Below are positions 47,102-63,944 of a stretch of DNA of 64,000 bases, piece by piece. Both the position numbers and the translations under genes were made by a program. How positions within the stretch are numbered: position 1 is the first letter of the stretch; each line of letters opens with the position of its first letter. The notes beneath the pieces were generated by a model. That model had not been told where the DNA came from and searched no databases. It was given only the letters and a program-made list of their open reading frames with translations. Source of the DNA: an uncultured archaeon (lineage in GTDB: Archaea; Asgardarchaeota; Lokiarchaeia; Sigyniarchaeales; SOKP01); assembly GCA_964583985.1 (NCBI GenBank), contig CAZOYD010000008.1:21894-85893 (forward strand), read 5' to 3'.

Positions 47102-47590
47102 ATGGTAGAAACCCATGATTATTCATTTTTCGGTAAATCAACAGGATTAATACTAAGAAGTCGGAGCTTGAATGAACCTTTTATATTTTTAACGTGCGTG
47201 AGAAAAAAACGCGATGGTATGTGGGAAAAGACTTCTCAAGGTGAAGGTAAGACAATGCGCTTATCATTGGAAGAAATGATATCCATCAAGGAAGTATTTA
47301 AGAAATGTCCTTCTTCATGGAACACGATCCATAAATATAAGGAAGACATGACCAGCATTGAATTTGTGTCAAGGGAGGATCAATCCTTGCCCTATCTCTT
47401 GAAGATCGGAACATATCCCAAACCACTCACGTTTGCTCAAGGAGAGATCTTTCGAATGTTATTAGATCATCTCATTACGGAAAAAATTGAGAACTTAAAC
47501 ACTTTCCTCAAGAAATCTACTAACTCCGAAGAATTAAAATCGACAGCACAAAATTACTTGTACATTAAGGAAGAAACGACGAATACTTAA
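47102..47590 (+). CDS. Hypothetical protein, possible PC4/Whirly-like ssDNA-binding fold
   Basis: GGAGGT ribosome-binding site; two beta-rich/helix units ending in RLSLEE and PLTFAQ. Confidence 0.55.
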   Translation: MVETHDYSFFGKSTGLILRSRSLNEPFIFLTCVRKKRDGMWEKTSQGEGKTMRLSLEEMISIKEVFKKCPSSWNTIHKYKEDMTSIEFVSREDQSLPYLLKIGTYPKPLTFAQGEIFRMLLDHLITEKIENLNTFLKKSTNSEELKSTAQNYLYIKEETTNT

Positions 47591-47630
47591 AATTTCATTT
47601 TTCTTCTTTCTTTTTTATACCCTAATCATT

Positions 47631-48830
47631 TCACTTATTTCGTTCTAACTCATCTAATTGGGCTAAAATCCATATTTTGAATTGATTAAAATTCTTGATT
47701 GAGGGAACGGGAGGAATTATTGCAGGAGAAGAGTTTTTTATTGGTTTTTCGTCATTGTTTTCAGTAGAAGGAACAATTTTAGCGTGGTATTCATTAAAGT
47801 CTTGTTTGATTTCATTTGATTTTAACCATGTTGTAGGAATGTTAAGTTTTAAGAAAAGATCATGTAACAATTCAATTTCTTCATTATCCAAGACTAGCTT
47901 AAAGTTTAACCATTGCTTGATGAAATCTTCTGAAATTCCCTCTTTCCAGTGATGATTTCGTAGGTAATTGTAAAGTTCCTTTGGATCATAAAGTTGAACC
48001 AGTTCCAAATTCGCTGGATTAACGTGTTCGCTCCTATAATCGTGAAGTGACGTGACAAAAGCTTGAGCAATGCTTCGCTTTGTTGATAATATAGTTTCAT
48101 ATTCGCCCGAAAAGTCAGAATCATTAACTCGAGAAGAATTATTTGAGTTTTTTACTCTTGGTCTTATAACTGAGGTAAGTAACGACTTGGTTATCTCTTC
48201 AGGAATAACAATTTTAAAAAAGTTTTGGGTAAATTGAAGGATACGAGACCAAAATTTTTGGGGAAAAATTGATTGATGTTCTTCCAAGATGGCTCGAACA
48301 CGCTCTTTACTAGTTGATTCAATCAACTCCTTGTATATACGGGTTGCAATGCCCTTGATCCGCATGAGTAAATCTTGTAAAACGTTTTGATCCCCTTGTG
48401 ATTGCCGAAAAAGTTCCATCTCAAATTCCAACTCGCTATTATTTTTTAGGGAAGGATTTATAAACTTCTTACTTTTCTTGTTATAAAAAAGGATTTGGTT
48501 ACTGTTCGCAAGAGATTCGACATTTTCGTTAGTGTTAATGATATATCTTACATTTTTTATTGCGATTATGGACCGAATGATGATTTTACTCGCATTATAT
48601 ACGAAAAAAAGAGAAGGACTTTGGGAATAGGTGCTAGATTGATGTTCGAGGATGCTTCCAATATCGTTTAATGTCGTACAGTCTAATTCAATGGAAGAAT
48701 GCCCCGTGGCGAAAAGTTCCAATGCCTTTAAATGCTTGATATCTAAATATGGATATATAACCACGTTCTTTTGTTGGAAAAAGATAACTTGCATTAGTTC
48801 CGGTGTCAGGAAATCAGATCCCACATCCAT
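47631..48830 (-). CDS. Hypothetical protein
   Basis: 399-aa ORF with no recognised motif. Confidence 0.7.
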   Translation of the reverse strand: MDVGSDFLTPELMQVIFFQQKNVVIYPYLDIKHLKALELFATGHSSIELDCTTLNDIGSILEHQSSTYSQSPSLFFVYNASKIIIRSIIAIKNVRYIINTNENVESLANSNQILFYNKKSKKFINPSLKNNSELEFEMELFRQSQGDQNVLQDLLMRIKGIATRIYKELIESTSKERVRAILEEHQSIFPQKFWSRILQFTQNFFKIVIPEEITKSLLTSVIRPRVKNSNNSSRVNDSDFSGEYETILSTKRSIAQAFVTSLHDYRSEHVNPANLELVQLYDPKELYNYLRNHHWKEGISEDFIKQWLNFKLVLDNEEIELLHDLFLKLNIPTTWLKSNEIKQDFNEYHAKIVPSTENNDEKPIKNSSPAIIPPVPSIKNFNQFKIWILAQLDELERNK

Positions 48831-48925
48831 TAGACTTTATCATCTCTCTTAATTATCAATCTTAAACACTATCATTTATTCACAAAATCGGTTATTCCTG
48901 TTTTATATGTTAATAATCTATACGG

Positions 48926-49585
48926 TTAGAGTTCTACAACTGCCGTGAAATAGCGAAAAATGACTTGATACATCAAGTCTTGAAAACATTCACGCACGTT
49001 ATCTCCATTTACTGCCACACATGGATATATTACTTGCGTCTCATCGTCGAACCGGTCGAAGCCAGGAAGCCCTAATTGCTTCTTAAATTCTTCGATTGGA
49101 ATAGCATTGGGGAGATCCCGCTTGTTTAACTGAACCAAGAATGGTATCTTTCTTGGACCCGCAAATGCTACTAACTCTCGAAAGCTTCGCTTGTTTTCTT
49201 CCATAATAGCGGGATTTGAATCTGCAACAAAGATGATTCCATCAGCTCCGTCCAATACATACTCTCTTGTAGAAAGAAATCGTTCCTGACCCGTGCACGT
49301 CAAAATTTGGGTTATAATATTATACTTGGCAGGTCCAATATCCACGTAAAAGGATAATCGAATTGAATCTTGCCATAAAGTTCTTCCATCAGTGGTTTCG
49401 ATTGACAGCCCACCATTTAGTTTCACTCCATCATATTTTTCCCTCAACCTGAAGTAGTTAGTTGTTTTTCCTGACTCTCCTGGCCCCCAATACACGATCT
49501 TGAACTGTAAGATATCTGCTAACTTGTTGATCCCTGAGTTTGCAGACAATTCAATATCCTTTTCTTTATTGGTATTAATGCTCAT
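48926..49585 (-). CDS. MglA-like small GTPase
   Basis: KIVYWGPGESGKTTN, RTL, TCTGQ, GADGIIFVADS and NKRDL motifs. Confidence 0.9.
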   Translation of the reverse strand: MSINTNKEKDIELSANSGINKLADILQFKIVYWGPGESGKTTNYFRLREKYDGVKLNGGLSIETTDGRTLWQDSIRLSFYVDIGPAKYNIITQILTCTGQERFLSTREYVLDGADGIIFVADSNPAIMEENKRSFRELVAFAGPRKIPFLVQLNKRDLPNAIPIEEFKKQLGLPGFDRFDDETQVIYPCVAVNGDNVRECFQDLMYQVIFRYFTAVVEL

Positions 49586-49608
49586 TTTATATTTTACCTC
49601 CGAGAAAA

Positions 49609-50142
49609 TTAAGATGATTGGAACACTTTCTTTTTAAGATCGATAAGATGTTTCTTGAGTTCAACTTCGGTCATTTCTAAGCGTGAAACTGTTTTAGCAC
49701 TTTGTTCTATAGTTTTTCGTAAAAGTTCCGCGTATTTATTCATCTGAAGTATTATAACTCCAATATTTACTTCATTGTCTACCAATAAAATGATAAGAAT
49801 TTCGCGTTTACCTTTCCTTGGTAGTACAACATTTCCTACTGACCTGACGTAGAGTTGTAAATCCTTGAAAATTATCGAACCTCTTACTAAATCGGCAGTT
49901 TCAAAAAAATCTTGTGCTTGACGGGCAACACCATACATCGCAGCACCGACCGAACTTAAATCCCAATAATTAAGTTTCCGATCAAATCGGGAATCTATGG
50001 CTATAATTTTTGCATCTTGGTCAATAGCTATCATGCCATAAATGAATCCCTTTCTGGTAAGCATTCCGTAATCTTGTCGCATCTTATCCAATACTTTTGT
50101 AATTTCATTTTCATAGAGATCTTTCGGTATATAATTTGTCAT
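49609..50142 (-). CDS. Roadblock/MglB-like protein with C-terminal helix
   Basis: Roadblock pattern ending ILLVDNEVNIGVI; directly upstream of the MglA-like gene. Confidence 0.72.
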   Translation of the reverse strand: MTNYIPKDLYENEITKVLDKMRQDYGMLTRKGFIYGMIAIDQDAKIIAIDSRFDRKLNYWDLSSVGAAMYGVARQAQDFFETADLVRGSIIFKDLQLYVRSVGNVVLPRKGKREILIILLVDNEVNIGVIILQMNKYAELLRKTIEQSAKTVSRLEMTEVELKKHLIDLKKKVFQSS

Positions 50143-50253
50143 GTGTTTTACTTTCCTTGTAATTACAATTTTAAGATAAATACTATGTGAAGATATTTAA
50201 AAAAAAAGAAAATCAGATTTTTTGATATTTTTAGCCATCAAAATGCAATCCCT

Positions 50254-51195
50254 TTAAGATGATCGCAATGAAGATTTTTTAGTGAAAATAAGCTCTTTTT
50301 CTCCCGTATATGAGTTTTCTTTAACCAATAGATTATGAAATGAGTAGACTTTACCATCTTCTATCATTTTCAAGTATTTAATAGCAGCATCGCTCCATAG
50401 TATGATCCTAGCAGAAAATCCTTCCTCATCCGTTATATTGAGTTTTAAGAGAAAAGTTAGTTGTCCCGATTTTAAAGAGATTTCTTTGAATTCTTCCACG
50501 TTCACAATACCTCTTACGACGCGAATGAATTTTTGATTTTGCATTGAGATTTGTAAGGGTATTGAATTTTTTAACTCACTTTTTTTGGTTATTTTTTCTA
50601 ATGGTTCCAATTTTTCAAGCCGTTTCCTTTCTGTGGGATTAAGGTCTTCGGGAGCAATCATTATTTTTCCCTTCCTTCCAAGATGGATTTCAAGTTCTTC
50701 ATTTCTCCCCATTTTGGAATATCCTTGGAGGATTCTCACTAAAATCCCTTCATAGAAGTATTCAGATTGAAGAATTTTTACCAGCTCATCCCATATCACC
50801 ACCTTAATTGCATCGCTTTCGTCTTGTAGGAGGAAAGATCCAACCATTCCTATCGAACCATCATTTCGCGTGAACTCGTTGATTTTAAATACTTGAATTA
50901 CTTTTCCCAATATTACAATATTAGTCATTCCCTCACTTACTTCAGAAATAAGGATCCTAAATTCGTCATAATCGATTTCTTCTTCAACTATGTGATATAC
51001 TTCGGGATCCAGATCAGGATTGCGGATGTTAATGCCATGTTCCTTCGCGATGAGAAATAACATTCCTTCTGGACTCATAAATCCTCCGAACTCTTGGCTT
51101 TTTTTTCGCATGGCCGTTTTGATCTCTTCATCCTCGAGACCCTCCTTTAATAGGATCTGATATAACTCATCATTAAAAGAACTCACTTTAATCAC
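50254..51195 (-). CDS. rpa: RPA/SSB with N-terminal helical domain and two OB folds
   Basis: F.R.DGS.G.VGSFLLQDES..IKVVIWD; second OB fold ITDEEG...IILW. Confidence 0.85.
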   Translation of the reverse strand: MIKVSSFNDELYQILLKEGLEDEEIKTAMRKKSQEFGGFMSPEGMLFLIAKEHGINIRNPDLDPEVYHIVEEEIDYDEFRILISEVSEGMTNIVILGKVIQVFKINEFTRNDGSIGMVGSFLLQDESDAIKVVIWDELVKILQSEYFYEGILVRILQGYSKMGRNEELEIHLGRKGKIMIAPEDLNPTERKRLEKLEPLEKITKKSELKNSIPLQISMQNQKFIRVVRGIVNVEEFKEISLKSGQLTFLLKLNITDEEGFSARIILWSDAAIKYLKMIEDGKVYSFHNLLVKENSYTGEKELIFTKKSSLRSS

Positions 51196-51251
51196 AATAA
51201 TTTTGACTTTTTTGGATGAAACTGATATCTTTATTTTTAAAGAAAAAAAAA

Positions 51252-52340
51252 TTAATATTCTAATAATTTTTTCTGTATCTTACGGGGTTCATTCAAGTGA
51301 GAGCACGAGTACTTGATTGTTTTATTAAAGTTCGTGATCACTTTTTCAAGATTATTTCTAACCCTTTCTTCGTCTAATCGATGATCCCTACACAACAATG
51401 CGATAATATTTTCTTCATGGGGCATATTCCAGTGAAGATTAGGATATTTATTTAATACATCTGGAAAGAGAAATATTTGCCGCACTTGTTTAATGATTGA
51501 AGCGTTCAATTTGGAAAAATCGTATTTATCTTTCTCACTGTTTATAACTCTTTCAATTGTCTTGTAAAGTTTTATCAATCTTAGTGCATTTTTTGGACCT
51601 ATTTCTTTGATACCCAGGAAATAATCTGTACCAATGAGCAGTCCCATATCTACTAATTGGAATTGAGAAATGTTTAAACTTTTTAAAAAAACCTTTAATT
51701 CAATGAGTTGGGGCTGTATTTTTGTATAGGTCCACTTACCACGCTCCTTTCTGCGCAATGATTTGGAAAGGTCGCGTACGATACGAGGACATCCAAAAAG
51801 AAGAGAATCATAATCTTGGGAGTTGGAATAACGAGCGATACCATCCTTTACCAATTGAGCGCATTGTGATTCTGCAGAAGCAGGGGATTCGATATAGGGG
51901 ATTCCTAATCCACCGAGTAGGGCTTTTGATTCCTTGATAATATTGGGCCATAAATATTCTGAACTCAATGCTATGGATCGAGCTTGGTTTTTATCTCCAT
52001 CATTCAATGCCTGTTTGAACCATCGTTCGGTAAACAAGAAATCCTTGAGCCGATCTTTTGTGCGAATTTTTTTAAGTTCTGAATCAATTCCATCGAAACA
52101 AAAAATAGGAAGGATTCGTTTGGAATAATAAAAATTCACTCGATATAATAATCCATAAAGGTGAGATATTGGTCGTTGAGTACCGTCAAGAAAATACTTG
52201 AAATCCATGGAAGAATTTTTATGGGAAAAAGAGAATAGGCTCGAAATAATATTAGGAGCATCAATTGCAATGACATTTCCTGCTAAATCCGATGCCTCGA
52301 TTGGAATCGGAATCAATATCTCTCGTAATTTAATTCCCAT
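51252..52340 (-). CDS. fen: Flap endonuclease FEN1-family paralog
   Basis: MG start; IDA, SHL.GL, FDG, SQDYDSLLFG, GTDY and IGPK motifs; PIP-like QKKLLEY. Confidence 0.88.
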   Translation of the reverse strand: MGIKLREILIPIPIEASDLAGNVIAIDAPNIISSLFSFSHKNSSMDFKYFLDGTQRPISHLYGLLYRVNFYYSKRILPIFCFDGIDSELKKIRTKDRLKDFLFTERWFKQALNDGDKNQARSIALSSEYLWPNIIKESKALLGGLGIPYIESPASAESQCAQLVKDGIARYSNSQDYDSLLFGCPRIVRDLSKSLRRKERGKWTYTKIQPQLIELKVFLKSLNISQFQLVDMGLLIGTDYFLGIKEIGPKNALRLIKLYKTIERVINSEKDKYDFSKLNASIIKQVRQIFLFPDVLNKYPNLHWNMPHEENIIALLCRDHRLDEERVRNNLEKVITNFNKTIKYSCSHLNEPRKIQKKLLEY

Positions 52341-52432
52341 GATATCAATGATGGCTATTCATTTATAAAAAAAAAATGACAAGTTCAATTTTTTCTTTAA
52401 AATAAAACAGTGCAAATGGAAGACAAACTAAG

Positions 52433-52843
52433 GTGAACTACTTCATGGGTCGTAAAGATTATTATTCACATAATGATTATTCATATTACGGTAATGATGA
52501 TGAAAGTCATCGTGGAAGAAGAACTAGCAGGATCACGCTATTCGTGATTGGGATGGTGTTATTTGTCCTGGTTTTCATGCCATTTTATGGAATTACCTTG
52601 AGATACTATATAGGAACGTCGTTTCGACTAGTTTTTGATTATTTAGGAAAGGTTTTCCAAACCGTTGGTGGATTCACTCTTCTAATCGTGGGAGCAAAAT
52701 TACTCATTGGTCATAAAATTTGGTATGGCGGAATGATACTTGGACTCATACTTCTATACATGGGTGCTTTTCTGACTGGAGGTACGGTGGTAATTTTTGG
52801 AATGACTCTCTACCAACCAGGAACTCTACCTGGATTCCATTGA
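52433..52843 (+). CDS. Small 3-TM Gly-rich membrane protein
   Basis: Three hydrophobic segments after a charged N-terminus. Confidence 0.65.
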   Translation: MNYFMGRKDYYSHNDYSYYGNDDESHRGRRTSRITLFVIGMVLFVLVFMPFYGITLRYYIGTSFRLVFDYLGKVFQTVGGFTLLIVGAKLLIGHKIWYGGMILGLILLYMGAFLTGGTVVIFGMTLYQPGTLPGFH

Positions 52844-52946: not shown

Positions 52947-53180
52947 TTAGCGAAAGATATGGAAGTATTTCACGCCAGTTTCTAATCCACAGATTGCCAA
53001 TAAAGCGATCGAGAAAACAATCACGCTTAACATGTGCTTTCGCAAGCGACCTCCACCCCAAATAAAGACAATGAACCCAACCACCAATCCAATAAATCCC
53101 AAGATGGATCCTAAGGCAATGAGAAATTCCATTCCTGTTCCAAGATCATCAAAATAATCAAAAATTGCAAGAATTACCAT
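52947..53180 (-). CDS. Small 2-TM protein, VirB2/TrbC/CedA1 pilin-like architecture
   Basis: 77 aa; two hydrophobic helices joined by GGGRLRK. Confidence 0.55.
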   Translation of the reverse strand: MVILAIFDYFDDLGTGMEFLIALGSILGFIGLVVGFIVFIWGGGRLRKHMLSVIVFSIALLAICGLETGVKYFHIFR

Positions 53181-53333
53181 TATGAATTCAATTTCATGTA
53201 TTTCTTTTTAAAAAAAAAATAAAGTTGAGGTCTTCCGATTTAGTAATTTTTCTTTTTTCCTTTAAATAAAAATGTGAGGAAAGACTCCTAACTATCTCTC
53301 TATCTTTTAATTACAAGATAAGGATATGATTAC

Positions 53334-53648
53334 ATGAGACAATTAGATGAAATCGGAACATGTTCTTGTGGATGTTCCTTAATGATTTATATGACGAAAA
53401 ATTACAAGCGATTTGTTAAGTGCGATAATTGTGGAGTGTCCTATGCCTTACCAAAGCGAGGAAAAATCAGCAATTCTGCCTTAACATGTCCACGCTCCAA
53501 TTTTCCTGTACTTATAGTGGATCGACCCAACCAGAAGGCCTATTTTTGGGCAGATCAACCTTGTTTTTCCTGCATTCATTATGATAAGTGTCCCATTACT
53601 GCTGAACTCATCGTAGAATTTAAAGAATTAGAGGTGCATGGCTATTAA
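53334..53648 (+). CDS. Stand-alone zinc-ribbon protein resembling the Topo IA C-terminal zinc ribbons
   Basis: CSCG..KRFVKCDNC..YALP..G..CP..P pattern. Confidence 0.65.
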   Translation: MRQLDEIGTCSCGCSLMIYMTKNYKRFVKCDNCGVSYALPKRGKISNSALTCPRSNFPVLIVDRPNQKAYFWADQPCFSCIHYDKCPITAELIVEFKELEVHGY

Positions 53649-54684
53649 GTCAAAACCTATTGCATTCTTCATTTTAATCTTCTCATTGTGTTTTATACTA
53701 ATTACGGCATCATTTGACCTCAATCCTCAAGAATTTAACGGGATAAATGTTCCTAACAGGGAGTGTTACTCTTCAATTCATCTGAGCGCTGAAGAGGACA
53801 TCCTCGTGGACAAAGTATTTACTTTCGAGATTGGGGGACCGCAATTAAATTTTACAGATATCCCACTTCTCGGGGAATTTACATATTTCACGTGGATTCG
53901 CTTGGTCACTCCACATTCATGCAACATTACGGTTCGGATTAATGATCCAGATGGAAAGCTTTTTACCGTATATGATGGTGCCCTTCAGCAAGTACCGTAT
54001 GATTTAAGCTATCAAGAAATACCTTTTGGAACAGCCATGGAAGGAAATCACACCTTTTCTTTCGAAGTGGAGAGCATTTTTAATGTGAATATTCATATCA
54101 AGATTGAAAAAGAACATGAGTGCTTGAGAGATAAAATTTCTGAATGGGATCCGATGAATTTTGTATTGTATGAAGTTACGCGATTTAATACAGATCAACC
54201 CTATATAATCCACCAATTTGCTTTACAATCCGATTATTCATATAAATTATATATCGGACGTGTATCAGCAGAAGGGAACTTAAGCACGGTTGACTATGTT
54301 GATTTGAAGATCTTCGATCCCAATGGCCTACCCTTTGCTGTCTTCTTGAATAGCACTTTAGCAGGAGTGTCAGAAGTTAATTCTTTTTTATTTGGCACGT
54401 CTCACGCAGGAACTTATTCAATACGCATTGAAATTCACGTTGATGAAGGACATGAAAACATAAATGTTGCTTATGCTATGGTAAATAAAGGGATTATTGC
54501 ATCAGGTGAAGATCCTACTGATGTAAATGGAACTATCCCTTCCGATACCTCGAGAATTTTCCTACCTCCAGAAACATTGATGGTGGCAGGATTGGGTGTG
54601 GGGGGAATAATGGTGGTAATCGGAGTAATGATGGTATTTCGAAAGCGCAAGGACGCAATAAATTATAACTCCAAAATGGATTAA
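53638..54684 (+). CDS. Secreted membrane-anchored protein with two beta-sandwich repeats
   Basis: Signal peptide; repeats INDPDG..F..PFGT..G and IFDPNG..F..LFGT..G; C-terminal TM helix and RKRK. Confidence 0.75.
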   Translation: MAIKSKPIAFFILIFSLCFILITASFDLNPQEFNGINVPNRECYSSIHLSAEEDILVDKVFTFEIGGPQLNFTDIPLLGEFTYFTWIRLVTPHSCNITVRINDPDGKLFTVYDGALQQVPYDLSYQEIPFGTAMEGNHTFSFEVESIFNVNIHIKIEKEHECLRDKISEWDPMNFVLYEVTRFNTDQPYIIHQFALQSDYSYKLYIGRVSAEGNLSTVDYVDLKIFDPNGLPFAVFLNSTLAGVSEVNSFLFGTSHAGTYSIRIEIHVDEGHENINVAYAMVNKGIIASGEDPTDVNGTIPSDTSRIFLPPETLMVAGLGVGGIMVVIGVMMVFRKRKDAINYNSKMD

Positions 54685-54977
54685 TTTTTTTCTTTATTCT
54701 CATTTAGAAAACTAATTTCTTTTTCAGTTTAATCTCTAATTATTTGGCTAATTCTAATATCGTAACTCGAAAATTTATTTTGTTACTCTTGCTCGAGTTG
54801 GAGGAAGAGAAGGATAAAGTAGAAGTAGAGTAAATAGAATTTACTAATCTTGAGTATTTTTCTTTACCTTAATAGATGAAAAAACATTAAATCAATGTAA
54901 GAATTAAATTATATAAATGTCTGTCTTGTATGGTTGTCTATTTAAACACAAAAATCTTTACGTAAACATGATTTAAA

Positions 54978-55484
54978 GTGATTAATTTGGTTAAGAAAGA
55001 GATGGTAGGAGTGTATCCTATCAGGTACAAAGAGAATAAGTTAGAGTTTCTCATGATAAAAAGAGCTACTTTGAGTTATAATTGGCAATGCGTAACTGGT
55101 TCAGTAGGAGATTCAATGGGGGCATTTGATCACCCGAAAGGAGAAAGTCCTCTTGAGTGTGCAAAAAGAGAACTTTTTGAAGAAACAGGTTACATTCCTA
55201 CTCTTATTCTCCCGATAAATATACCTCAAGAATTATATGCGGAAAATGAAGAAGATGAAGGTCATAAATCTCCTCCTCATCTTCAAGAGCTTGTAAAAGA
55301 AATTACATTTTATAACTTCATAGCACGCATAGATCAACCTCAGGATCCAATTTTGAATCCTGCTGAACATACGGATTGGAAATGGTGCAGCTTTGAAACA
55401 GCTTATAAGATAATAAAGTGGGCTATTGAAAAAAAATTGTTAAGGTATGTCAGTAATTACCTTATTAAAAATCCTTTAGAATAA
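54978..55484 (+). CDS. NUDIX hydrolase
   Basis: GESPLECAKRELFEETG and EHTDWKW motifs. Confidence 0.9.
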   Translation: MINLVKKEMVGVYPIRYKENKLEFLMIKRATLSYNWQCVTGSVGDSMGAFDHPKGESPLECAKRELFEETGYIPTLILPINIPQELYAENEEDEGHKSPPHLQELVKEITFYNFIARIDQPQDPILNPAEHTDWKWCSFETAYKIIKWAIEKKLLRYVSNYLIKNPLE

Positions 55485-55492
55485 TAATTCAC

Positions 55493-56293: not shown

Positions 56294-56383
56294 ATTTAAT
56301 TTCTATTTTTTTTTACAAATTAGTAAAATTATAAATAACTGATTATAACCTTATAAATTGTATCGAGATCTTGATTTTTAAGG

Positions 56384-57718
56384 TTACATCCGCCTCTTAT
56401 TAATTATATAGAAGATAAAAGCACCAATAATCGTAAACACGACGGAAAGTTGAAGTAAAACATCCCAATATATTTCAACACAATTTGGTGGATTATTTTT
56501 TGGATTTTTAAAAAGCACTAATTCTTGACTTGGATTAGGACCGCCTTCTAGTCGCAGAATTCCTGAAATGTAAACGTTTCCGTAAGAATCTAAAGCAATA
56601 CTTGTAGATCTAACATCAAAACATCCAGTGCATGTAATGCTTGAATTTAATATACCATCTTTTGTGTATCTTTCTAAACCTATGGAATAACAACCACAAG
56701 GGTCATCGAAACCACCACAACCAGGCAGATAAACACGAAGTAATTCATATCTATAACAACGTGATATGTGAGAGGCAGTTAGGAGAATTGAATTATCTTT
56801 ATTAACAGCAATATCGGATTTTGTCCAGAGAAAAAAGGAACTCTTTACACTCCATGATGTTAACAGGGAGGAATTTATTTTAAATAAACTATGTAAATAA
56901 AATAATATGATATCATCGTTTTTATCTAGTTCAATTGAAATAGAATCTTCAAGTGGATTTACAATTTCAGATACGCTAATATTCATTATAGGAACTCCTG
57001 AAGAATCACACTTAAATAATATAACTTCATCTTTGTAATGCCCTCCAACATATATCTCATTTTCTTGATTTATTACTAGCGAATTGCAATTGCTAACATA
57101 TGGATAGTAGATATCTTTGTTATTTTCCCAAATTGTTTTGTTCCAAATCAGTATTCCCATCTCATCGACTTTAAGGATGAAATTATTAGTACTATTTTCA
57201 CAGCTCTTTATTGCTAGTAAATAGAGATTATTACTTGAATCGATCTTCATATCTGATAAAATATCCCCTTTATACATTTTACTCCACAGTTTTTGCCCAG
57301 AATTATTATATTTCATGAGAACTAAACTAGTATCAGATAAATTATGGACCCTTCCTCCTAAATAAATATCCCCACGTGAATCTAATGAAATACAATAAAT
57401 TTGAACAGTATTGGTTTCATTTATCTCTGCTGTCCACAATAATTTTCCTTTATCATTATATTTATTTAAGTAATTGTATAAATGGGATGATCCAAATCCC
57501 ATGAGATATATGTTATCCTCGCCGTCAATTGCTATTTCTGCTCCGACTGTGTATTTAGATCCCTCTTGTATCCAATAGTTGGGGGAATCACCGTAATTTT
57601 CTGCTTTCCAGTTTTTCCACCTATTTTGAGGTGAAAACAATAATGATATGGAATAAAAAGCTATTATCTCCATCGTTATAATAATGATTGTTGATATCAA
57701 TATGTATCTTGGTCTCAT
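56384..57718 (-). CDS. Membrane-anchored beta-propeller (SBBP-like repeats)
   Basis: Repeated I.LDS.GN.Y..G and KY...G..LW units; N- and C-terminal TM helices. Confidence 0.78.
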   Translation of the reverse strand: MRPRYILISTIIIITMEIIAFYSISLLFSPQNRWKNWKAENYGDSPNYWIQEGSKYTVGAEIAIDGEDNIYLMGFGSSHLYNYLNKYNDKGKLLWTAEINETNTVQIYCISLDSRGDIYLGGRVHNLSDTSLVLMKYNNSGQKLWSKMYKGDILSDMKIDSSNNLYLLAIKSCENSTNNFILKVDEMGILIWNKTIWENNKDIYYPYVSNCNSLVINQENEIYVGGHYKDEVILFKCDSSGVPIMNISVSEIVNPLEDSISIELDKNDDIILFYLHSLFKINSSLLTSWSVKSSFFLWTKSDIAVNKDNSILLTASHISRCYRYELLRVYLPGCGGFDDPCGCYSIGLERYTKDGILNSSITCTGCFDVRSTSIALDSYGNVYISGILRLEGGPNPSQELVLFKNPKNNPPNCVEIYWDVLLQLSVVFTIIGAFIFYIINKRRM

Positions 57719-57938
57719 AAAATACCATTTTTAATTGAAAAAATTTTAAATTATAGTGCAAGCTCGATTTAGGATCTACAAGTATTAATTGGATCAAGAT
57801 AACTTTTTAATTCTTTGTTTTCATGATAATAATACCAACTTTTTTCCCAAAAATAGCATAAACCGAAGTAATTCTACCTAAAATATTGATTTAAAAAAAA
57901 ATTGGATGATTATATTTAATAGATATGAATAATATCTT

Positions 57939-58259
57939 TTGAGTGAGAAAATCATGAAATCTTTAAATAAAGAAGAGATATTCAAGCTTCTGAACCGACA
58001 TAGAGAAGAATTAAAGAGTCATAATGTAATAAAGATTGGATTATTTGGCTCCATGTTGAGAGGAGATAATACTAAGGAGAGTGATATTGATTTTATTGTC
58101 GAGTTTGAGGAAGGAAAAAAAAATTATGATAATTTTATTGAAGTAGCATTTCTATTAGAAAGTCTATTGCAGAAAAAAGTAGATTTACTGACAATGGAAG
58201 CAATCAGTCCTTATATGAAGCCTAAAATTCTGAAGGAGGCTTATTTTGAGTTAATCTGA
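57939..58259 (+). CDS. mntA: MNT nucleotidyltransferase antitoxin
   Basis: LFGS-x10-DID motif and VDL. Confidence 0.9.
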   Translation: MSEKIMKSLNKEEIFKLLNRHREELKSHNVIKIGLFGSMLRGDNTKESDIDFIVEFEEGKKNYDNFIEVAFLLESLLQKKVDLLTMEAISPYMKPKILKEAYFELI

Positions 58260-58590
58260 TGATTATATAGACAAAATCAACCATATTTATATTGAGTTAG
58301 ATTATTTATCAATCAAATCAAAAGGGTTAACATATGAGCAGTTCATTTCAGATGAAACTCTAAAACGAGCATTTGTTAGAAGTTTAGAGATTATTGGAGA
58401 AGCCGTAAAAACTATTCCTAAACAAATATCTGACCAATATAGACAGATCGAATGGAATAAAATCGCAGGGATGAGAGATAAATTAATCCATCACTATTTT
58501 GGTGTTGATTATGATTTAGTATGGGACGTGATTAAAAACCATATTCCTAAATTAAAAGAAATAATTAAGTTAATTCTCAATAAAGAATAA
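58246..58590 (+). pseudogene. hepT: HEPN (DUF86/HepT) toxin, absent from the ORF track; stop at codon 3
   Basis: TTG AGT TAA, then an open frame ..RSLEIIGEA..W..IAGMRDKLIHHYFGVD..VW.. to TAA at 58590; Rx4HxY intact. Confidence 0.8.
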
Positions 58591-58698
58591 TTGAAATTTA
58601 ACACAAAAGAGATTAATACTAAATACAAAAAGAAAATCATCTTTCCATAAAACTTTTAATTTCATTCTTATATACTAATTTGTTAAATAATTAATTGG

Positions 58699-59520
58699 GT
58701 GTTTAAAATACCGATCTTCAAACACGATGATATCGAAATCAATTACATAATGAAAGGAAAGGGGGAGCCTCTAGTTCTTGTACATGGATTTGGGACAAAA
58801 TATCAAGCTTGGAATTTTCAAATCCCCTATTTCGAAAAAAGAATGAAAGTTATCGCATTAGATAATCGTGGAGTAGGAAAAAGCTCACGACCAAATTATC
58901 ATTATACAATAGATATGTTCGTAGAAGATATTAAAGCTCTTTTAGATCATCTAAATATTCAAGATAAAGTTCATTTATGTGGTATTAGTCTAGGAGGAAT
59001 GATCGTTCAAAATTTTGCGGTGAAATATCCTGAGAAATTGAAGACTTTAATTCTTTGTGCCACATCTGCTTTTTATGATCCAGGACCTTTATTTCAGAGT
59101 TTTGAATTAATTAAATATTTGAATTTAGAAGAACAAGTTGAAGCTTTATTACCTTTTACGCACTCTAGAACTTTTCTTAGAAAATTAAAAAACGATCAAC
59201 AGTTATTTGATTCTCTTAAAGAAGATGTGCTTTTTATTACTCCGATGAAGGATCCTACTCACTTTCAAGATTACATGAATCAAGGTAATGCCATGAATAC
59301 CCATGATACACGTGAATTTTTAAATAAAATTAGAATTCCCACTTTAATACTTGGGGCAAATAAAGATAGATTAATCCCTTATCCCCATCAAGAATTCTTG
59401 CATGAAAAAATTCTTAACTCAAAATTAGAAATTTTCAAGGGTTGTGGTCATGCTTTTACTATAGAAATGCCTGAAAAAGTAAATGAGCTGATGTGGAATT
59501 TTATAAAAGAGAATTCTTAG
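58699..59520 (+). CDS. Alpha/beta hydrolase
   Basis: HGF, DNRGVG, GISLGG and D..GH motifs. Confidence 0.92.
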   Translation: MFKIPIFKHDDIEINYIMKGKGEPLVLVHGFGTKYQAWNFQIPYFEKRMKVIALDNRGVGKSSRPNYHYTIDMFVEDIKALLDHLNIQDKVHLCGISLGGMIVQNFAVKYPEKLKTLILCATSAFYDPGPLFQSFELIKYLNLEEQVEALLPFTHSRTFLRKLKNDQQLFDSLKEDVLFITPMKDPTHFQDYMNQGNAMNTHDTREFLNKIRIPTLILGANKDRLIPYPHQEFLHEKILNSKLEIFKGCGHAFTIEMPEKVNELMWNFIKENS

Positions 59521-59705
59521 AAAAGAATAAAGATGTTAAAAAAAATTTATGATTTGAATTATGTTTGGATCATACTCTTTGCATTAACTTGCCATTCTTG
59601 AACCTTTTTCATTGATGCACCACTCACTTTTGAAGCAATCTCATCTGCTGGGGCACATATTAACTCGCTTAACGAATTAATTCCAGCTTTCTTGAGTTGA
59701 AGAGC
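59521..59705 (-). repeat. Diverged duplicate of the radA 3' end and terminator (other copy 60991..61174)
   Basis: 32/48 identical aa by manual count; downstream AGATGT.AAAAAAA..TATGATTTGA also shared. Confidence 0.9.
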
Positions 59706-59733
59706 ATACTTGCTCCGATATAGGGGATTTAAA

Positions 59734-60915
59734 TCATAAACGACATATATTCCCATCTTTTATGATGTAATGCCCTACCAGCATATCTGGATTCTTGCTA
59801 ATTGCTTTAATAATATGCTTTTGAAGACTTTTTGCGTTTTCAACGATTTTAAGAGAGGGGTTTTCCCCTGTTGCTATTTGGGCTAATTCTGTAATATAAT
59901 AAGATTTAATGTTCTTTTGAGTAGCGTGGCTAGATAAACTAGCAAGACAACCCGTGCATATGTGAGCTATTATGTCCGCATTTGCACTTTCGGCTTCATT
60001 TATTCTTTCCTTTGCAATTTTGGTGGCGAGAGGTCTATTTGATACGGTTAAAGGAGCACCGCAACACATGGAAGTTTCCTTATTGTGTTTCATTTCTACT
60101 ACTTCAGCACCAAGAATTTCAAGGAATTCTCTCGGACTATTATATATTTTCTTGTCTAACTTTCTCCACGGACAGGGATCTTGAAAAGTTATTCTTTGGT
60201 TGATCTTATTTTTTACGTTTAATGTACCTTCATGATACTTTTCAATCAAATATTCAATTACATTTTGACCTTCTATATTAAATCCATCGACAGTTGATGG
60301 ATAGAAACCTTTAATCATAAAATCACATTCAGGACAGAAGGTTATAAGCTTCTCTACACTAAGGTGTTTGAATTTTTCATATAGTTCCAAACCTTTTATC
60401 CTTGCTTCATTTTCACCGAACCTGGAATACACATATCCCCCACAACAATACTTCATTCCTCCCACGATAGGTAATTCCTCGAAAAGCTTGGTTTTAGCAA
60501 GATCTGGAAAACAATAAGGAATTCCACACCCCATATAGAACATTTTATCACCTTTTTGAGGATTTTCATATTGAGTTAAATCTCGCTTTTTTTCCTCAGT
60601 GTCAATTTCTAACCCGATAGACATCAAATTATGAGGTACTTCTTCAGTTATAAGTGCTAAACTTCTCACACCTTTCTCACGATACATTTTTAATCGTATT
60701 TCTCTTATTAAATCATATGGATTTGACCCCGTTGGGCATATTATATTGCAATAAGAACAGCTGGCACAATTTTTGATTATTTTTTGTGAGGTTCTCTTCT
60801 CAATCATTTTAGAAATCTCTTGTTTCGAACTTTCTAAAGATAATCGCAGAAATGGACATTGTTCAAGACATGTACCACACCGCTGGCATGTTTCTTCATT
60901 AAAAATTTTTAGCAA
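59734..60915 (-). CDS. Fe-S oxidoreductase (ferredoxin plus CCG domains, HdrD/GlcF-like)
   Basis: Two CxxCxxCxxxCP motifs; CCGG, CPEC, DPC, CCG and CTGC. Confidence 0.88.
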   Translation of the reverse strand: MLKIFNEETCQRCGTCLEQCPFLRLSLESSKQEISKMIEKRTSQKIIKNCASCSYCNIICPTGSNPYDLIREIRLKMYREKGVRSLALITEEVPHNLMSIGLEIDTEEKKRDLTQYENPQKGDKMFYMGCGIPYCFPDLAKTKLFEELPIVGGMKYCCGGYVYSRFGENEARIKGLELYEKFKHLSVEKLITFCPECDFMIKGFYPSTVDGFNIEGQNVIEYLIEKYHEGTLNVKNKINQRITFQDPCPWRKLDKKIYNSPREFLEILGAEVVEMKHNKETSMCCGAPLTVSNRPLATKIAKERINEAESANADIIAHICTGCLASLSSHATQKNIKSYYITELAQIATGENPSLKIVENAKSLQKHIIKAISKNPDMLVGHYIIKDGNICRL

Positions 60916-61027
60916 CTCTTTTGTTAAATCTGATTTTGTTGATAATAATTAGTCTTTATTTTATTTATAATAACTTCATCAAGATTAATGAATAGAAAAA
61001 AGATGTGAAAAAAAAGTATGATTTGAT

Positions 61028-62281
61028 TTATGTTTGGCTCATGCCCTTTGCGTTACCCTGCCATTCTTGAATCTTTTTTACTGATGCGCCATTAACTTTT
61101 GAAGCAAGATCTTCAGGTTGAGCAGATATTAATTCATGAACTGAATTAATTCCAGCTCTTTTAAGTTGTACAGCCATACCTACTCCTATTCCTTTTACAT
61201 TAGTAAGATTGTTTCCATCGTCATCACTTTCAAGTGTTGTTTCAGGTTCGATCAGAGTTTCTTGTTCATCTTCATCAAGATCTTCGTATAATGAAGGAAC
61301 TTCAAATCCGCTCGTATCTCCTTTGGGCATTTCAGCGTTTTCTGTATCTGCAATACCCACACTTGTAATGTAAAATTCTGCTTCTTCGGGCGGCAGATCC
61401 GGGGCATCCACGATGACAGCTCTTCGTTTTAAGGAATTATTGGATGAAAATCCCTTGGTCTTGAACATTACCCTGAAATGGCAACCATGTGCGATGATGT
61501 TTCCACCGATTGCATCATCGCTCGAGAACATGCCCATCATTTTGGTGGCAACTTGGTTTGTGAGCAAGATAGCACAATTGTAGGTTTCTGCGATTCTAGA
61601 AAGTGCATGGATCATGTTGTTCAGCACGCTTTGCCTTCTGGCGAGCATTCCGATACCCACGTATTCAGCACGCATGAGCGCCATCAGGGAGTCTACAATG
61701 ATGAGCCGCACGCCATTATTCTTGCACAGCGTTTCAGCTTTAGATATCATTTGAGATTGATGATCAGAGCTAAAAATTCGAGCATGAAAGATGCCGGAAA
61801 GCACTTTTTTGGGGTCCAATCCAAATCTCTTGGCAATCCGCTTAACTTTTTCCTTAGAAAATGTATTTTCCGTATCTATATATGCTACTTTTGCACCTAA
61901 ACCACCTTTACTTTTCGGTAATTGAATTGAAACGGAAATCGTGTGAGCTAAATTGGTTTTTCCTGACTTGAAAGGTCCGTAAACTTCAGTGAGCTTTCCA
62001 GTTTGAAAGCCCCCGCCAAGTATTCTATTCAATTCAGCTGAACCAGTCGTGATGTATTCGGTATTCTCATCGATTTCTTCAGCAGCGACAAAATCACTCA
62101 TTCCTAAAGCATTCCTAGCATTCCAAATGAGTTTTTTTGCCGTTTTATCACCAAGACCATCAATTTCACTTATGATAACGTGTGGTGACATTGCCAATGC
62201 TTCTGCAGAGCTGATGCCATTCTCTTGCAAGAGCTTGATTTGCCTGGCATTTATATTTTTGACTAAATCTAATTCTGCCAT
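61028..62281 (-). CDS. radA: RadA/Rad51-family recombinase paralog with acidic linker and extra C-terminal HhH domain
   Basis: N-terminal HhH, FVAA, GPFKSGKT, YIDTENTF, IVDS, RAEY, TNQV and GGNIIAH motifs. Confidence 0.93.
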   Translation of the reverse strand: MAELDLVKNINARQIKLLQENGISSAEALAMSPHVIISEIDGLGDKTAKKLIWNARNALGMSDFVAAEEIDENTEYITTGSAELNRILGGGFQTGKLTEVYGPFKSGKTNLAHTISVSIQLPKSKGGLGAKVAYIDTENTFSKEKVKRIAKRFGLDPKKVLSGIFHARIFSSDHQSQMISKAETLCKNNGVRLIIVDSLMALMRAEYVGIGMLARRQSVLNNMIHALSRIAETYNCAILLTNQVATKMMGMFSSDDAIGGNIIAHGCHFRVMFKTKGFSSNNSLKRRAVIVDAPDLPPEEAEFYITSVGIADTENAEMPKGDTSGFEVPSLYEDLDEDEQETLIEPETTLESDDDGNNLTNVKGIGVGMAVQLKRAGINSVHELISAQPEDLASKVNGASVKKIQEWQGNAKGMSQT

Positions 62282-62355
62282 TATGTTTCATTATATTTTT
62301 TAATTAAATTTAGGAGAAAGTAACTCACGTGCTTTTAAAGAACAAAAAAAATTGT

Positions 62356-62739
62356 TTAGAATAGTTCCTCATTTTCTTCAGAATATAGTTGAAGTTTTTG
62401 ATTAAATTGAAAGGGCTCAAGACCATGAATTAACGCGTCATGCATCAGCCGTTGATTCATCTCTTCTACGTCCTCCTTGTTTAATGGCATTTCCATATTA
62501 GATAGAGCTTCATCTAACGAGAACTTCTTATCTTTTAATTTCCCAAAATATCCTCCATATAAAAAAAAAAGGCCAATCATCATCTCAATATCGTTCTGTG
62601 TAAATCGAGACAGACATTGTCGACACACCACTGCGAAATTTATTTTTGATTGATAGACGCCGACTAAATCAGTAATGTCGGAATGACACACAGAACAAAT
62701 CACTATCGAATTGGTATCAGAATCATGAAGGTGATACAT
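62356..62739 (-). CDS. Zinc-finger hypothetical protein
   Basis: CSVC..CRQC. Confidence 0.65.
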   Translation of the reverse strand: MYHLHDSDTNSIVICSVCHSDITDLVGVYQSKINFAVVCRQCLSRFTQNDIEMMIGLFFLYGGYFGKLKDKKFSLDEALSNMEMPLNKEDVEEMNQRLMHDALIHGLEPFQFNQKLQLYSEENEELF

Positions 62740-62740
62740 G

Positions 62741-62766
62741 CAACATATTTATAATCAACATATTTA
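62741..62766. repeat. 11-bp direct repeat CAACATATTTA (period 15) in a promoter
   Basis: Copies at 62741-62751 and 62756-62766, directly upstream of the 62739 start. Confidence 0.6.
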
Positions 62767-62866
62767 AAGAAAAAGAGAAATACTTCAAAAAAAAAAATGC
62801 TTTAAGTGCAATTAAACTCAACTGGAAATATATTTGTCAGAGGATTCAAATATTCGAAAAGAAGAT

Positions 62867-63580
62867 TTAATTTGTTAGGACTAATCCCACATCATTCATT
62901 ACATAAGATTTGGTAAGATTTTCCTTACCAAATATAACTTGTATTTGAGAAACTTTCCCAAAAATGGATCGAGTTAAATTAATTGATATACCCTGAATTC
63001 TGCTAAATAATTTATGATAAAATGATCTCGTTATTCCCGTATGAGGATCTTGCGATACTTCATGTATCAAGATAAGATGGATATTATTTCTCTTGCAGAA
63101 CATAATGAGAGGAAATAAGATCTCATCAAAAAATTGGTTCACAATTTTAGAACGACTTGAAAAATCTTTTAGTTCAGCCAAACGATATCGCAAATGATGG
63201 GAGATATTATCAATTACGATGAATTTGACATCAGGAGGTAATTCTTTAAGGTATAAATCTCGCAAAATTTTGTTTTGTTCGTCAAACGTGTGAAAAATGT
63301 TTCTTGAGGGAATGATAAAAATGTTTTTTAACAAGTAATCAAGTAATTCAGGTTTTAATTTTAACATTGAGTTGACTCGCTTTTTTGGAAAACTTTCGCT
63401 TGCTTGGATCCACAGTGCAGAGGAGTTTTCCTCAAATGGTATTTTAGCGGTCAATGATCCCGCAACTATTTGGAGAGCTAGAGTAGTTTTCCCCGTTCCT
63501 GAAGACCCAGAAAGAGAGATAATTTGACCACTCTTTATCATGTAATCCTCGAATAAAGTCATAATATTCATGATTTGCAC
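62867..63580 (-). CDS. RadB/Rad51-paralog-like RecA-fold ATPase
   Basis: GSSGTGKTT Walker A and FIVIDNIS Walker B; no N-terminal HhH. Confidence 0.82.
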   Translation of the reverse strand: MQIMNIMTLFEDYMIKSGQIISLSGSSGTGKTTLALQIVAGSLTAKIPFEENSSALWIQASESFPKKRVNSMLKLKPELLDYLLKNIFIIPSRNIFHTFDEQNKILRDLYLKELPPDVKFIVIDNISHHLRYRLAELKDFSSRSKIVNQFFDEILFPLIMFCKRNNIHLILIHEVSQDPHTGITRSFYHKLFSRIQGISINLTRSIFGKVSQIQVIFGKENLTKSYVMNDVGLVLTN

Positions 63581-63581
63581 A

Positions 63582-63944
63582 TCACTCCAATAAAGATAGG
63601 ATTTCTTGCTTCTTTTCCTCTAATTTCAATATTTCTTGATCCTGTTCTCGAGGTTGTGGTTGTATTAGTTTATCATGATTCTTATCCAAGAGTTGTTGGA
63701 CTAAAAACATCGTCATGATTTCATTTACTTGAGAACTTTCTTGCATCGATCTTACGCCTTTGCCAAAAAATACTCCGTTTCTCCTTGAACCGCCTTTTTT
63801 TCTTGATTTAATATAACCATAGCCAGCAAGTATCGCTCCGGCAATAATGAGCGTACCCACTGGATTCGTCTGATATACCATGAAAAATGCCAATCCGACG
63901 ACTATTAAACACATCCCTTTCATCTTACCAACTCCCCTCCTCAT
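63582..63944 (-). CDS. Small 2-TM protein with basic loop and coiled-coil tail
   Basis: Two N-terminal hydrophobic helices; stop codon 1 bp from the RadB-like start. Confidence 0.65.
   Translation of the reverse strand: MRRGVGKMKGMCLIVVGLAFFMVYQTNPVGTLIIAGAILAGYGYIKSRKKGGSRRNGVFFGKGVRSMQESSQVNEIMTMFLVQQLLDKNHDKLIQPQPREQDQEILKLEEKKQEILSLLE

Follow-up and report, generated by a model that had tools for sequence, protein, structure and literature searches.

Why would an Asgard archaeon keep a second set of recombination enzymes in the same stretch of chromosome as a small GTPase and several membrane proteins? The question is raised by 64,000 nt of an uncultured member of the Sigyniarchaeales, on contig CAZOYD010000008.1 of GenBank assembly GCA_964583985.1 (G000:C8:21894-85893 in our numbering). 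We call this whole stretch the window; its right edge coincides with the contig end. The assembly has 138 contigs and is 100% complete, and the window was annotated from a listing of its open reading frames (ORFs) together with family scans (Pfam and others). An earlier note on this DNA, made from the sequence, had singled out two blocks of genes at 47.1-54.7 and 61.0-63.9 kb and proposed a dedicated, possibly inducible module for DNA acquisition and recombination. Our analysis favors a second toolkit for homologous recombination in Loki-type (Promethearchaeia) Asgard archaea, accessory and regulated jointly, linked to a GTPase and covered for the most part by the window, and we put the probability of this reading at roughly 55%. 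It builds on paralogy, inheritance as one block, a promoter motif common to the genes, predicted folds, and a gene association that recurs across Asgard families.

The cassette comprises a divergent RadA (RadA*), a surface protein, a zinc-ribbon protein, two small membrane proteins, a flap endonuclease of the Fen1-2 type (FEN*), a second RPA (RPA*), a roadblock-like protein, an MglA-like small GTPase, and a 399-aa protein, g02. The accessory unit runs from RadA* to g02, and a RadB-like protein (g19), g18, and g20 are resident genes beside it. Nearly all of the parts that the earlier note had listed were recovered by ORF listing and family scans, including the RPA with its two oligonucleotide-binding (OB) folds, the RadB-like P-loop protein, and three small proteins with membrane segments in hydropathy plots (g07, g08, and g20; Table 1). 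The module it proposed stands as a set of extra paralogs that are co-inherited, probably co-regulated, and joined to a GTPase switch; the DNA-acquisition part is not supported. Added here are a DENN-like assignment for g02, the recognition of 54.7-61.0 kb as an insertion, the continuation of the neighborhood on a second contig (C9), and the persistence of the RadB-like, 127-aa, and 120-aa genes where the cassette is missing.

RadA*, FEN*, and RPA* are extra copies because the same genome encodes two higher-scoring RadAs, a canonical FEN1, and another RPA, which answers a check that the earlier note had proposed. Rad51-family scores are 324 and 304 bits for the RadAs on contigs C79 and C4, compared with 238-240 bits for RadA*, and RadB-type genes are also found on C56 and C32. 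The other RPA, on C19, is 43% identical to RPA* across aa 11-189; RPA* itself matches replication factor A models (E 5e-26) and OB-fold Pfam families, yet falls far under the equivalog cut-offs. FEN* scores 279 bits against TIGR03674 (cut-off 352), whereas the canonical FEN1 on C1 reaches 419 bits.

RadA* is a divergent RadA, as the earlier note had supposed, with the RecA-fold ATPase core and N-terminal helix-hairpin-helix (HhH) domain of the RadA/Rad51 family. It matches the RadA model NF003301 with 320 bits (cut-off 259) across aa 3-312, has GPFKSGKT as its Walker A motif, and reaches 282 bits against TIGR02236, under the cut-off of 361 for canonical RadA. The RadA core is followed by an acidic linker and then by a second HhH domain at aa 359-407. 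Phylogenetically, RadA* and other divergent RadAs fall outside the clade of canonical Asgard RadAs, and the relations of the divergent sequences to one another are not resolved in the tree.

Five loci, from four congeners, have a RadA* gene interrupted at one shared codon position, with ...AIGGN on one side and I(V)AHGCHF on the other (Table 1). In the three loci where the sequence was read (L042, L047, and L050), an insert of ~31 nt shifts the frame by +1 and both halves are open and conserved. The insert forms a hairpin whose arms differ among genomes by compensatory changes. Possible explanations are an mRNA mini-intron, a signal for recoding, and a disabling insertion that these loci share. 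The simplest bulge-helix-bulge register, drawn by hand on the L050 fold, would excise 29 nt rather than 31.

FEN* has a clear XPG_I match and a subthreshold XPG_N match in Pfam (20 bits, cut-off 22), and a degenerate C-terminal PIP-like motif, QxTLDQ[LY]. Its acidic motifs AIDA, FDG, QDYD, and GTDY are visibly conserved, and we take these to be metal ligands from what is generally known of FEN1. FEN* orthologs of the window's family read SPASAESQCA (ASAES) where canonical FEN1 and the paralog of Promethearchaeum syntrophicum MK-D1, a member of another family, read SE(G/A)E. The first Glu is thus replaced by Ser in every FEN* ortholog of the window's family and both are kept in MK-D1, so that nuclease activity, with one metal-binding Glu replaced, may be altered. 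A branch with SH-aLRT support of 95 divides seven linked FENs, drawn from Loki-type genomes, MK-D1, G077, and G076, from every canonical FEN1 sampled. This separate clade suggests that FEN* is the Asgard Fen1-2 type, the published Fen1-2 being likened to it by description rather than by sequence.

Within the genus the cassette is syntenic, and the two blocks of the window adjoin in relatives rather than being dispersed. FEN* orthologs with 55-82% identity are present in 14 of the 23 congeners. The order g20-g19-g18-RadA*-g10-g09-g08-g07-FEN*-RPA*-g04-g03-g02 recurs in 14 loci of 12 genomes and is complete wherever the contig is long enough. Including two further genes of relatives, the recurrent cassette order is RadA*-g10-g09-g08-g07-FEN*-(F8)-RPA*-(F18)-roadblock-GTPase-g02, and it persists despite variable inserts; a compact cassette of 9.4 kb without inserts was found on a metagenomic contig. 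F8, between FEN* and RPA*, and F18, after RPA*, are both absent from the window's genome. A PCNA-like clamp was considered for these two proteins and rejected: F8 gave no match, and F18 belongs to the DUF998 family of membrane proteins.

The interval of 54.7-61.0 kb between the blocks is a local insertion, since none of its genes sits between RadA* and g10 in relatives. There the gap measures 0.1-3.2 kb: ~0.1 kb in the most compact loci, and elsewhere it holds other variable inserts of 0.7-3.2 kb. Six genes occupy the insertion at 54978-60915, with Pfam matches to NUDIX, flavodoxin/Fe-S, propeller, nucleotidyltransferase, alpha/beta hydrolase, and CCG Fe-S families. A 200-nt duplicate of the RadA* 3' end also lies inside it (59520-59719 versus 60990-61189; 82% identical over 198 nt). 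The duplicated end, a 65-aa open fragment, brackets the CCG Fe-S gene.

Beyond g20, relatives encode F15, a weakly TFIIB-like protein, a 980-aa protein, a superfamily 2 (SF2) helicase whose helical bundle is of the Hef type, a zinc-ribbon protein, and a Hel308-like helicase. The genes that precede g20 in relatives open contig C9 in the window's genome.

The cassette also comes and goes as a unit. Among the 23 congeners, 12 have both RadA* and FEN*, 8 have neither, and 3 are discordant; two of the discordant loci are cut short where their contig ends, and the third discordant genome has a completeness of only 81%. The clearest case is G017 (98% complete), without RadA* and FEN*, which equals G018 minus exactly the RadA*-to-g02 segment. 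It keeps a fragmented Hel308-like gene and the series TFB-like-F15-g20-RadB-like-g18, then runs straight into the downstream flank of G018. Because this cassette-less genome retains the RadB-like gene, g18, and g20, we regard these as residents of the site. On G017:C17 (L172/L173) only two short fragments of the Hel308-like gene remain, and neither the Hef-like helicase nor the zinc-ribbon gene next to it is present, which hints, for a single genome, at co-loss of the helicases with the cassette. Several relatives have another g18 paralog after g02, which places copies of g18 on both sides of the cassette. The G008 bin (100% complete, 9% contamination) contains three to five cassette copies of two subtypes, on C12, C20, C52, C23, and C49, which represent either true multiplicity or mixed strains.

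Such behavior could suggest the remnant or cargo of a mobile element or virus, for instance a module for recombination-dependent replication like UvsX/gp32/RNase H of phage T4. Presence and absence as a clean indel between paralogous g18 genes, variable inserts between cassette genes, several copies in the G008 bin, and a duplicated RadA* 3' end flanking foreign genes in the window would all fit. However, the cassette showed no gene for an integrase, polymerase, primase, or capsid protein, the chromosomal site is the same in all congeners examined, and the paralogs are old, with long separate branches. IMG/VR contained no relatives of g02 and a single 26%-identical match to RadA*, PHROGs gave generic RecA-fold matches only, and the contamination of G008 means that its extra copies may be mixed strains. 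We therefore think a mobile or viral origin very unlikely.

The genes of the toolkit share a promoter type. A pyrimidine tract followed by TTTAAA or TATAAA lies upstream of RadA*, g18, g09, g08, g07, FEN*, RPA*, and g04. Genome-wide the pattern precedes 64 of the 3318 predicted genes (1.9%) as opposed to 7 of the 14 cluster genes, and it is also found upstream of F17 and F24 on C9 and of the g18 paralog on C34. In relatives it precedes RPA* in 7/11, g04 in 5/10, g18 in 7/14, g09 in 4/10, and g08 in 4/10 orthologs, compared with 10/261 for other ORFs of the same loci. MK-D1 has a variant motif ahead of several cluster units: the 18-mer TTTTTTGCTTTTATAAAC occurs exactly twice in its complete 4.3-Mb genome, both times within the cluster, ahead of the roadblock operon and ahead of the unit containing F15.

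A dedicated TFB for this promoter class is a conjecture. The TFB-like neighbor on C9 was rejected as a clear TFB, falling under the Pfam TFIIB threshold, and the eight clear TFIIB/TFB genes of the genome sit elsewhere (C19, C51, C45, C1, C6, C48, C22, and C27). The TFB gene on C6 (63289-64230) is itself preceded by the T-tract/TATA pattern.

The GTPase link is provided by three consecutive genes, g04-g03-g02. The accessible text of Liu et al. (bioRxiv 10.1101/2020.10.19.343400) describes an Asgard operon of a LAMTOR1-like Roadblock protein, a small GTPase resembling Rab, and a protein with a DENN domain, and g04-g03-g02 probably corresponds to it because g02 has a predicted DENN-like fold and follows a roadblock-like gene and a GTPase. 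Alignment of g03 displays a GPGESGKT P-loop, a G3 motif with TxTGQ replacing DxxGQ, and NKRD, as in MglA-type GTPases. What the earlier note had called an mglB-mglA pair therefore keeps its MglA-type GTPase, and the published Asgard Roadblock/small GTPase/DENN operon is a better frame for it than polarity. The g04 protein has no Pfam or PDB sequence match of its own. Its ortholog in G077 (97 bits to the family hidden Markov model) has a subthreshold Robl_LC7 match (E 3.7e-4) and a weak MAPKK1_Int match, and these, with the operon position known from the literature, make g04 a candidate roadblock protein.

The AlphaFold2 (AF2) model of g02 (pLDDT 77) aligns best in VIA-align with the folliculin DENN domain 3v42_B (Z 10.2, 162 aligned residues, root-mean-square deviation 3.4, model residues 1-207), followed by SMCR8 (Z 8.8) and DENND1A (Z 8.3). 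A DENN-like fold is thus predicted for the third gene of the operon, with a moderate margin. A clamp-loader identity, suggested by Foldseek matches to RFC subunits (E 3e-4, TM-score 0.2), was rejected: AAA+ similarity covers residues 1-120 only and there is no Walker A motif. DENN was preferred because it aligns over residues 1-207 with a higher Z. A complex prediction for the GTPase and the DENN-like half of g02 scored 0.00, which gives no verdict and counts neither for nor against binding. There are 312 homologs of g02, most of them from unnamed sources; all those with a named source are hypothetical proteins of Promethearchaeota-type metagenome-assembled genomes, and some homologs are fused to an NYN RNase domain.

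The association extends beyond the genus. MK-D1 (G037; cluster at NZ_CP042905.2, ~1.726-1.756 Mb) carries a rearranged but contiguous variant comprising a Hel308-like gene, a RadB-like gene, RadA*, a 109-aa membrane protein similar to g20, g01, a secreted protein, FEN*, a zinc-ribbon protein orthologous to g09, the GTPase, the roadblock protein, a g02-like protein of 499 aa, and a TFB-like gene. Of these, the Hel308-like, RadB-like, RadA*, g01, FEN*, zinc-ribbon, GTPase, roadblock, and g02-like genes lie within ~18 kb. MK-D1 encodes its canonical RadA separately, and G031, from the same family and complete, has neither RadA* nor a second FEN. In the MK-D1 cluster the zinc-ribbon unit and the GTPase gene are separated by an inserted gene for an 804-aa SIR2-TPR protein (L055:16726-19140).

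Five genomes with two FEN genes were compared from other Asgard families (G077, G076, G104, G060, and G068). The complete genome G077 has an operon of a Hel308-like gene, a double zinc ribbon, a RadB-like gene, a 446-aa protein, a TPR protein, FEN*, the roadblock protein, the GTPase, and two further genes, with a divergent RadA 9 kb away and divergently transcribed. G076 has FEN*, two RadB/KaiC-like genes, Hel308-like and XPD-like helicases, and a divergent RadA within 14 kb. The core of Fen1-2, RadA*, RadB-like, and Hel308-like genes is therefore clustered in two other Asgard families, in one of them together with roadblock and GTPase. The FEN/RadA pair of G104, separated by 41 kb, seems to stem from a FEN duplication specific to that lineage and was left out of this count.

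Two further explanations are best weighed against this distribution. The locus could bring together two or three units that have only their location in common, with no connection of the Roadblock-GTPase-DENN operon or the membrane genes to the DNA enzymes; the GTPase trio is a widespread stand-alone Asgard operon, the DNA enzymes of G076 have no detectable GTPase pair, and the cassette is made up of several transcription units on both strands. Against coincidence, FEN*, roadblock, and GTPase are adjacent in one operon of a distant family (G077) and, though rearranged, in MK-D1, a rare promoter is common to the units, and they are lost together, all of which makes unrelated neighbors quite unlikely. 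An anti-virus defense island would account for the patchy distribution and for variable inserts nearby, including the SIR2-TPR protein of MK-D1. We give that idea hardly any credence, as PADLOC returned only two weak generic P-loop matches (RadA* and the RadB-like protein) and the core proteins are repair-type enzymes. A dedicated GTPase-linked recombination module is supported by synteny, by presence and absence as a unit, by the shared rare promoter, and by recurrence in other Asgard families.

Table 1. Features of the cassette and its surroundings (window positions), followed by the interrupted RadA* loci of congeners (locus or contig positions)
Feature	Position	Strand	Remarks
g01, Whirly/PC4-like fold protein	47102-47590	+	162 aa; predicted fold, candidate single-stranded DNA binder; no family
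g02, DENN-like protein	47631-48830	-	399 aa; third gene of the trio; predicted fold, no family match
g03, MglA-like small GTPase	48926-49585	-	219 aa; Pfam Arf, Ras, Roc matches
g04, roadblock-like GTPase partner	49609-50142	-	177 aa; candidate assignment
Promoter of roadblock-GTPase-DENN unit	50143-50253	-	TTCTTTTTTTTTAAA; kept in 5/10 orthologs
g05, RPA*	50254-51195	-	second protein of the RPA-type single-stranded DNA-binding family; two OB folds
Promoter of RPA*	51196-51251	-	TTTTTTTTTCTTTAAA; kept in 7/11 orthologs
g06, FEN* (Fen1-2 type)	51252-52340	-	divergent flap endonuclease family
Divergent promoter region of FEN* and g07	52341-52432		T-tract + TATA motif, both strands
g07, membrane protein	52433-52843	+	136 aa; 3-4 hydrophobic segments (hydropathy)
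g08, two-transmembrane hairpin protein	52947-53180	-	77 aa; from hydropathy and alignment
Divergent promoter region of g08 and g09-g10	53181-53333		T-tract/TATA motifs
g09, double zinc-ribbon protein	53334-53648	+	104 aa; 11-nt overlap with g10 start
g10, surface protein	53638-54684	+	348 aa; N- and C-terminal hydrophobic anchors
Insertion, outside the module	54685-61027		unrelated genes, no counterpart at the site in relatives
g17, RadA*	61028-62281	-	third RadA paralog; extra acidic linker and C-terminal HhH
Promoter of RadA*	62282-62355	-	TTTTTTTTGTTCTTTAAA
g18	62356-62739	-	127 aa; zinc ribbon (CxxC...CxxC) and helical domain; resident gene
g19, RadB-like RecA-fold P-loop protein	62867-63580	-	237 aa; weak RadB and RadA matches
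g20, small membrane protein	63582-63944	-	120 aa; first gene before contig end
RadA* interruption, G008:C12	L042:6334-6366
RadA* interruption, G020:C45	L047 ~12553-12585	-
RadA* interruption, G015:C255	L050 ~8084-8116
RadA* interruption, G016:C32
RadA* interruption, G008:C49

The remaining cassette proteins are small or fast-evolving. PDB sequence-profile searches with g18, g02, g01, g04, g09, g10, and g08 returned nothing usable. The zinc-ribbon protein g09 has two conserved Cys clusters with invariant cysteines and no Pfam match; the stand-alone zinc ribbon of the earlier note is thus clear in its cysteine pattern, and the Topo-IA kinship it proposed remains a weak hint from the best PDB profile match, the zinc ribbon of the Topo3-beta C-terminus (E 0.2). 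The membrane protein g07 is syntenic in relatives at ~30% identity. The surface protein g10 presumably faces outward; its orthologs share ~33% identity and it has no PDB or Pfam match.

Just beyond g02, the g01 protein bears out at fold level the possible PC4/Whirly-like protein of the earlier note, for which structure prediction and a Foldseek search had been suggested. Its AF2 model (pLDDT 86, pTM 0.76) matches plant Whirly proteins PBF-2 and WHY1-3 (E 2e-5 to 1e-4, TM-score 0.59-0.62) and also MRP1/2 and PUR-alpha. This points to a Whirly/PC4-like fold of two beta-beta-beta-beta-alpha repeats, so modeled, and makes g01 a candidate single-stranded DNA-binding protein. The family occurs at 72 Promethearchaeota loci, of which 17 have any cluster-family gene within 10 kb, ~12 of them with g02, GTPase, or FEN genes. 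It therefore failed as a cassette marker across genomes, and the tie of g01 to the cassette is a loose one. A homolog with 49% identity to the g01 of the window is found on L131 (DATKTW010000105.1), a contig labeled Candidatus Nanopelagicaceae bacterium but probably Asgard DNA assigned to the wrong bin.

The membrane and surface proteins bring back the idea of DNA uptake or cell-to-cell exchange, in which they would import DNA for RPA*, RadA*, the Whirly-like protein, and Fen1-2 to process and integrate, with the GTPase setting the position of the apparatus. In or next to the cassette, four genes encode membrane or surface proteins, one of them the fast-evolving surface protein with its ~33% identity, and the system is accessory and patchy within the genus. 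Bacterial competence regulons have a dedicated SSB (single-stranded DNA-binding protein) paralog and a shared promoter, and the cassette similarly combines a dedicated SSB paralog with a shared special promoter. However, ComEC (PF03772) and DprA (PF02481) were not found in the 100%-complete genome, and its three HerA/DUF87-type ATPases, on C1, C13, and C19, are none of them near the cluster. At the level of sequence the small membrane proteins did not resemble pilins of the CedA1/VirB2 type; the g08 profile matched only chance transmembrane proteins in the PDB and no pilin-like or CedA1/VirB2-like structure, and the conserved core occurs in G077 and G076 without recognizable membrane-protein orthologs. 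An uptake system is thus unlikely; DNA exchange is one possible use of the cassette, and no specific component indicates it. Two of the HerA/DUF87-type genes lie near other copies of cassette genes, at G000:C1:76636-77259, ~3 kb from the canonical FEN1, and at G000:C19:39966-40595, ~8 kb from the other RPA.

How might a GTPase-linked recombination toolkit work? RadA* would perform strand exchange, RPA* would coat single-stranded DNA, and Fen1-2 would process 5' flaps or act in the 5'-3' direction, so that recombination or repair by these enzymes would run alongside the housekeeping pathway. The cassette occupies a fixed chromosomal site beside a RadB-like putative mediator and small zinc and transmembrane proteins, and the resident partners on the next contig are the Hel308-like and Hef-like helicases and a TFB-like protein. 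A distinct promoter class could switch the whole set on together. By analogy with folliculin/Rag-Ragulator and MglA/MglB, the GTPase switch may govern where or when the recombination proteins assemble, the assembly site probably being the membrane proteins encoded alongside, to which they would be tethered; the zinc-ribbon protein g09 is probably translationally coupled to the membrane-anchored g10. We infer the biochemical activities, GTPase control, membrane tethering, an inducing signal, and a DNA substrate that might be damaged, replicating, or incoming.

Several observations weigh against this reading. Synteny within one genus is in part a matter of shared descent, and the RadB-like gene, g18, g20, and the helicases persist in the cassette-less G017, which makes their membership uncertain. 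Outside the genus, G076 has its DNA-enzyme cluster without a detectable GTPase pair, and in G104, G060, and G068 the divergent RadA sits either on another contig than the second FEN or far away from it, at a distance of 41 kb in G104. The promoter pattern was written from the cluster's own sites, for which the relatives provide the fairer test. A genome-wide regulon derived from the pattern was also rejected, its 20 further annotated genes being functionally mixed and pointing to no trigger. With one catalytic Glu lost, FEN* of the window's family may be a poor nuclease, and AAA+ domains align with g02 at Z ~8-9, over residues 1-120 only, leaving a moderate margin for DENN.

A bolder reading extends the second recombination toolkit into an ancient, Asgard-wide, GTPase-gated recombination machine, in which Fen1-2, the RadA lineage, the RadB-like protein, and the Hel308-like helicase would form a second pathway recruited to the membrane by a folliculin-like switch. 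It would add the possibility of recombination with another cell's DNA, and possibly a prokaryotic forerunner of eukaryotic compartment-linked recombination. Fen1-2 has been reported as the closest archaeal relative of eukaryotic FEN1-family nucleases. We hold this extension to be possible but doubtful.

Under our preferred reading of an accessory second toolkit, Fen1-2, the extra RadA clades, and the Roadblock-GTPase-DENN operon, a trafficking-type signature, join here as one co-inherited, probably co-regulated Loki-type cassette. If so, the eukaryote-like Fen1-2 would probably serve recombination rather than the replication fork, and the GTPase switch, a 'eukaryotic signature', would gain a concrete candidate client in archaea. 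Asgard archaea would then have an optional second recombination pathway, the trigger of which is testable since a version is present in the cultured MK-D1; candidates for it are DNA damage, starvation, and cell contact.

Known systems resemble the cassette in part. The bacterial competence regulon consists of SsbB, DprA, RecA, and ComEC, and the Sulfolobales have the Ups/Ced UV response with TFB3. Like these, the cassette is an accessory co-regulated set with an SSB paralog, helicases, envelope proteins, and a TFB-like gene next door; unlike them, it comes with no ComEC or DprA found in the genome, no CedB-type ATPase found near the cluster, and no pilin match for g08. The predicted fold of g01 resembles the plant Whirly/PC4-like family (TM-score ~0.6, E 2e-5), whereas g01 is without detectable sequence similarity to it and belongs to an archaeal family with many paralogs, mostly outside the cassette.

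The accessible text on Asgard Fen1-2 (PMC12680538) describes a divergent second FEN1 beside the canonical Fen1-1, treated as a replisome paralog, with no gene context in the main text. FEN* likewise accompanies a canonical copy and sits on a long branch apart from canonical FEN1, and it differs in being linked to RadA*, RPA*, RadB-like, and Hel308-like genes and a GTPase switch, and in the replacement of one catalytic Glu. A second RadA clade has been described in some Asgard archaea (PMC12722695), in a text whose accessible part does not address gene neighborhoods. RadA* is likened to that clade by description, as an extra paralog distinct from the main copy, and differs from it by the added C-terminal HhH domain. 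Relative to the operon of Liu et al., the window's trio has the same gene order of roadblock, GTPase, and a third protein with a predicted DENN-like fold, but it is embedded among recombination paralogs with their promoter type, a context that the accessible text of Liu et al. does not mention. The parts have thus been published separately, and we found no description of the assembled set in the literature as far as it was accessible.

The closest functional analogies for the switch are folliculin-FNIP/Rag-Ragulator and MglA-MglB, which the trio resembles in combining a small GTPase, a candidate roadblock-type partner, and a regulator with a predicted DENN-like fold; g03 has the MglA-type TxxGQ motif. 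To our knowledge, none of these switches is wired to recombination enzymes. They control lysosomal signaling or cell polarity, unlike the trio of the cassette, which is set among enzymes of recombination.

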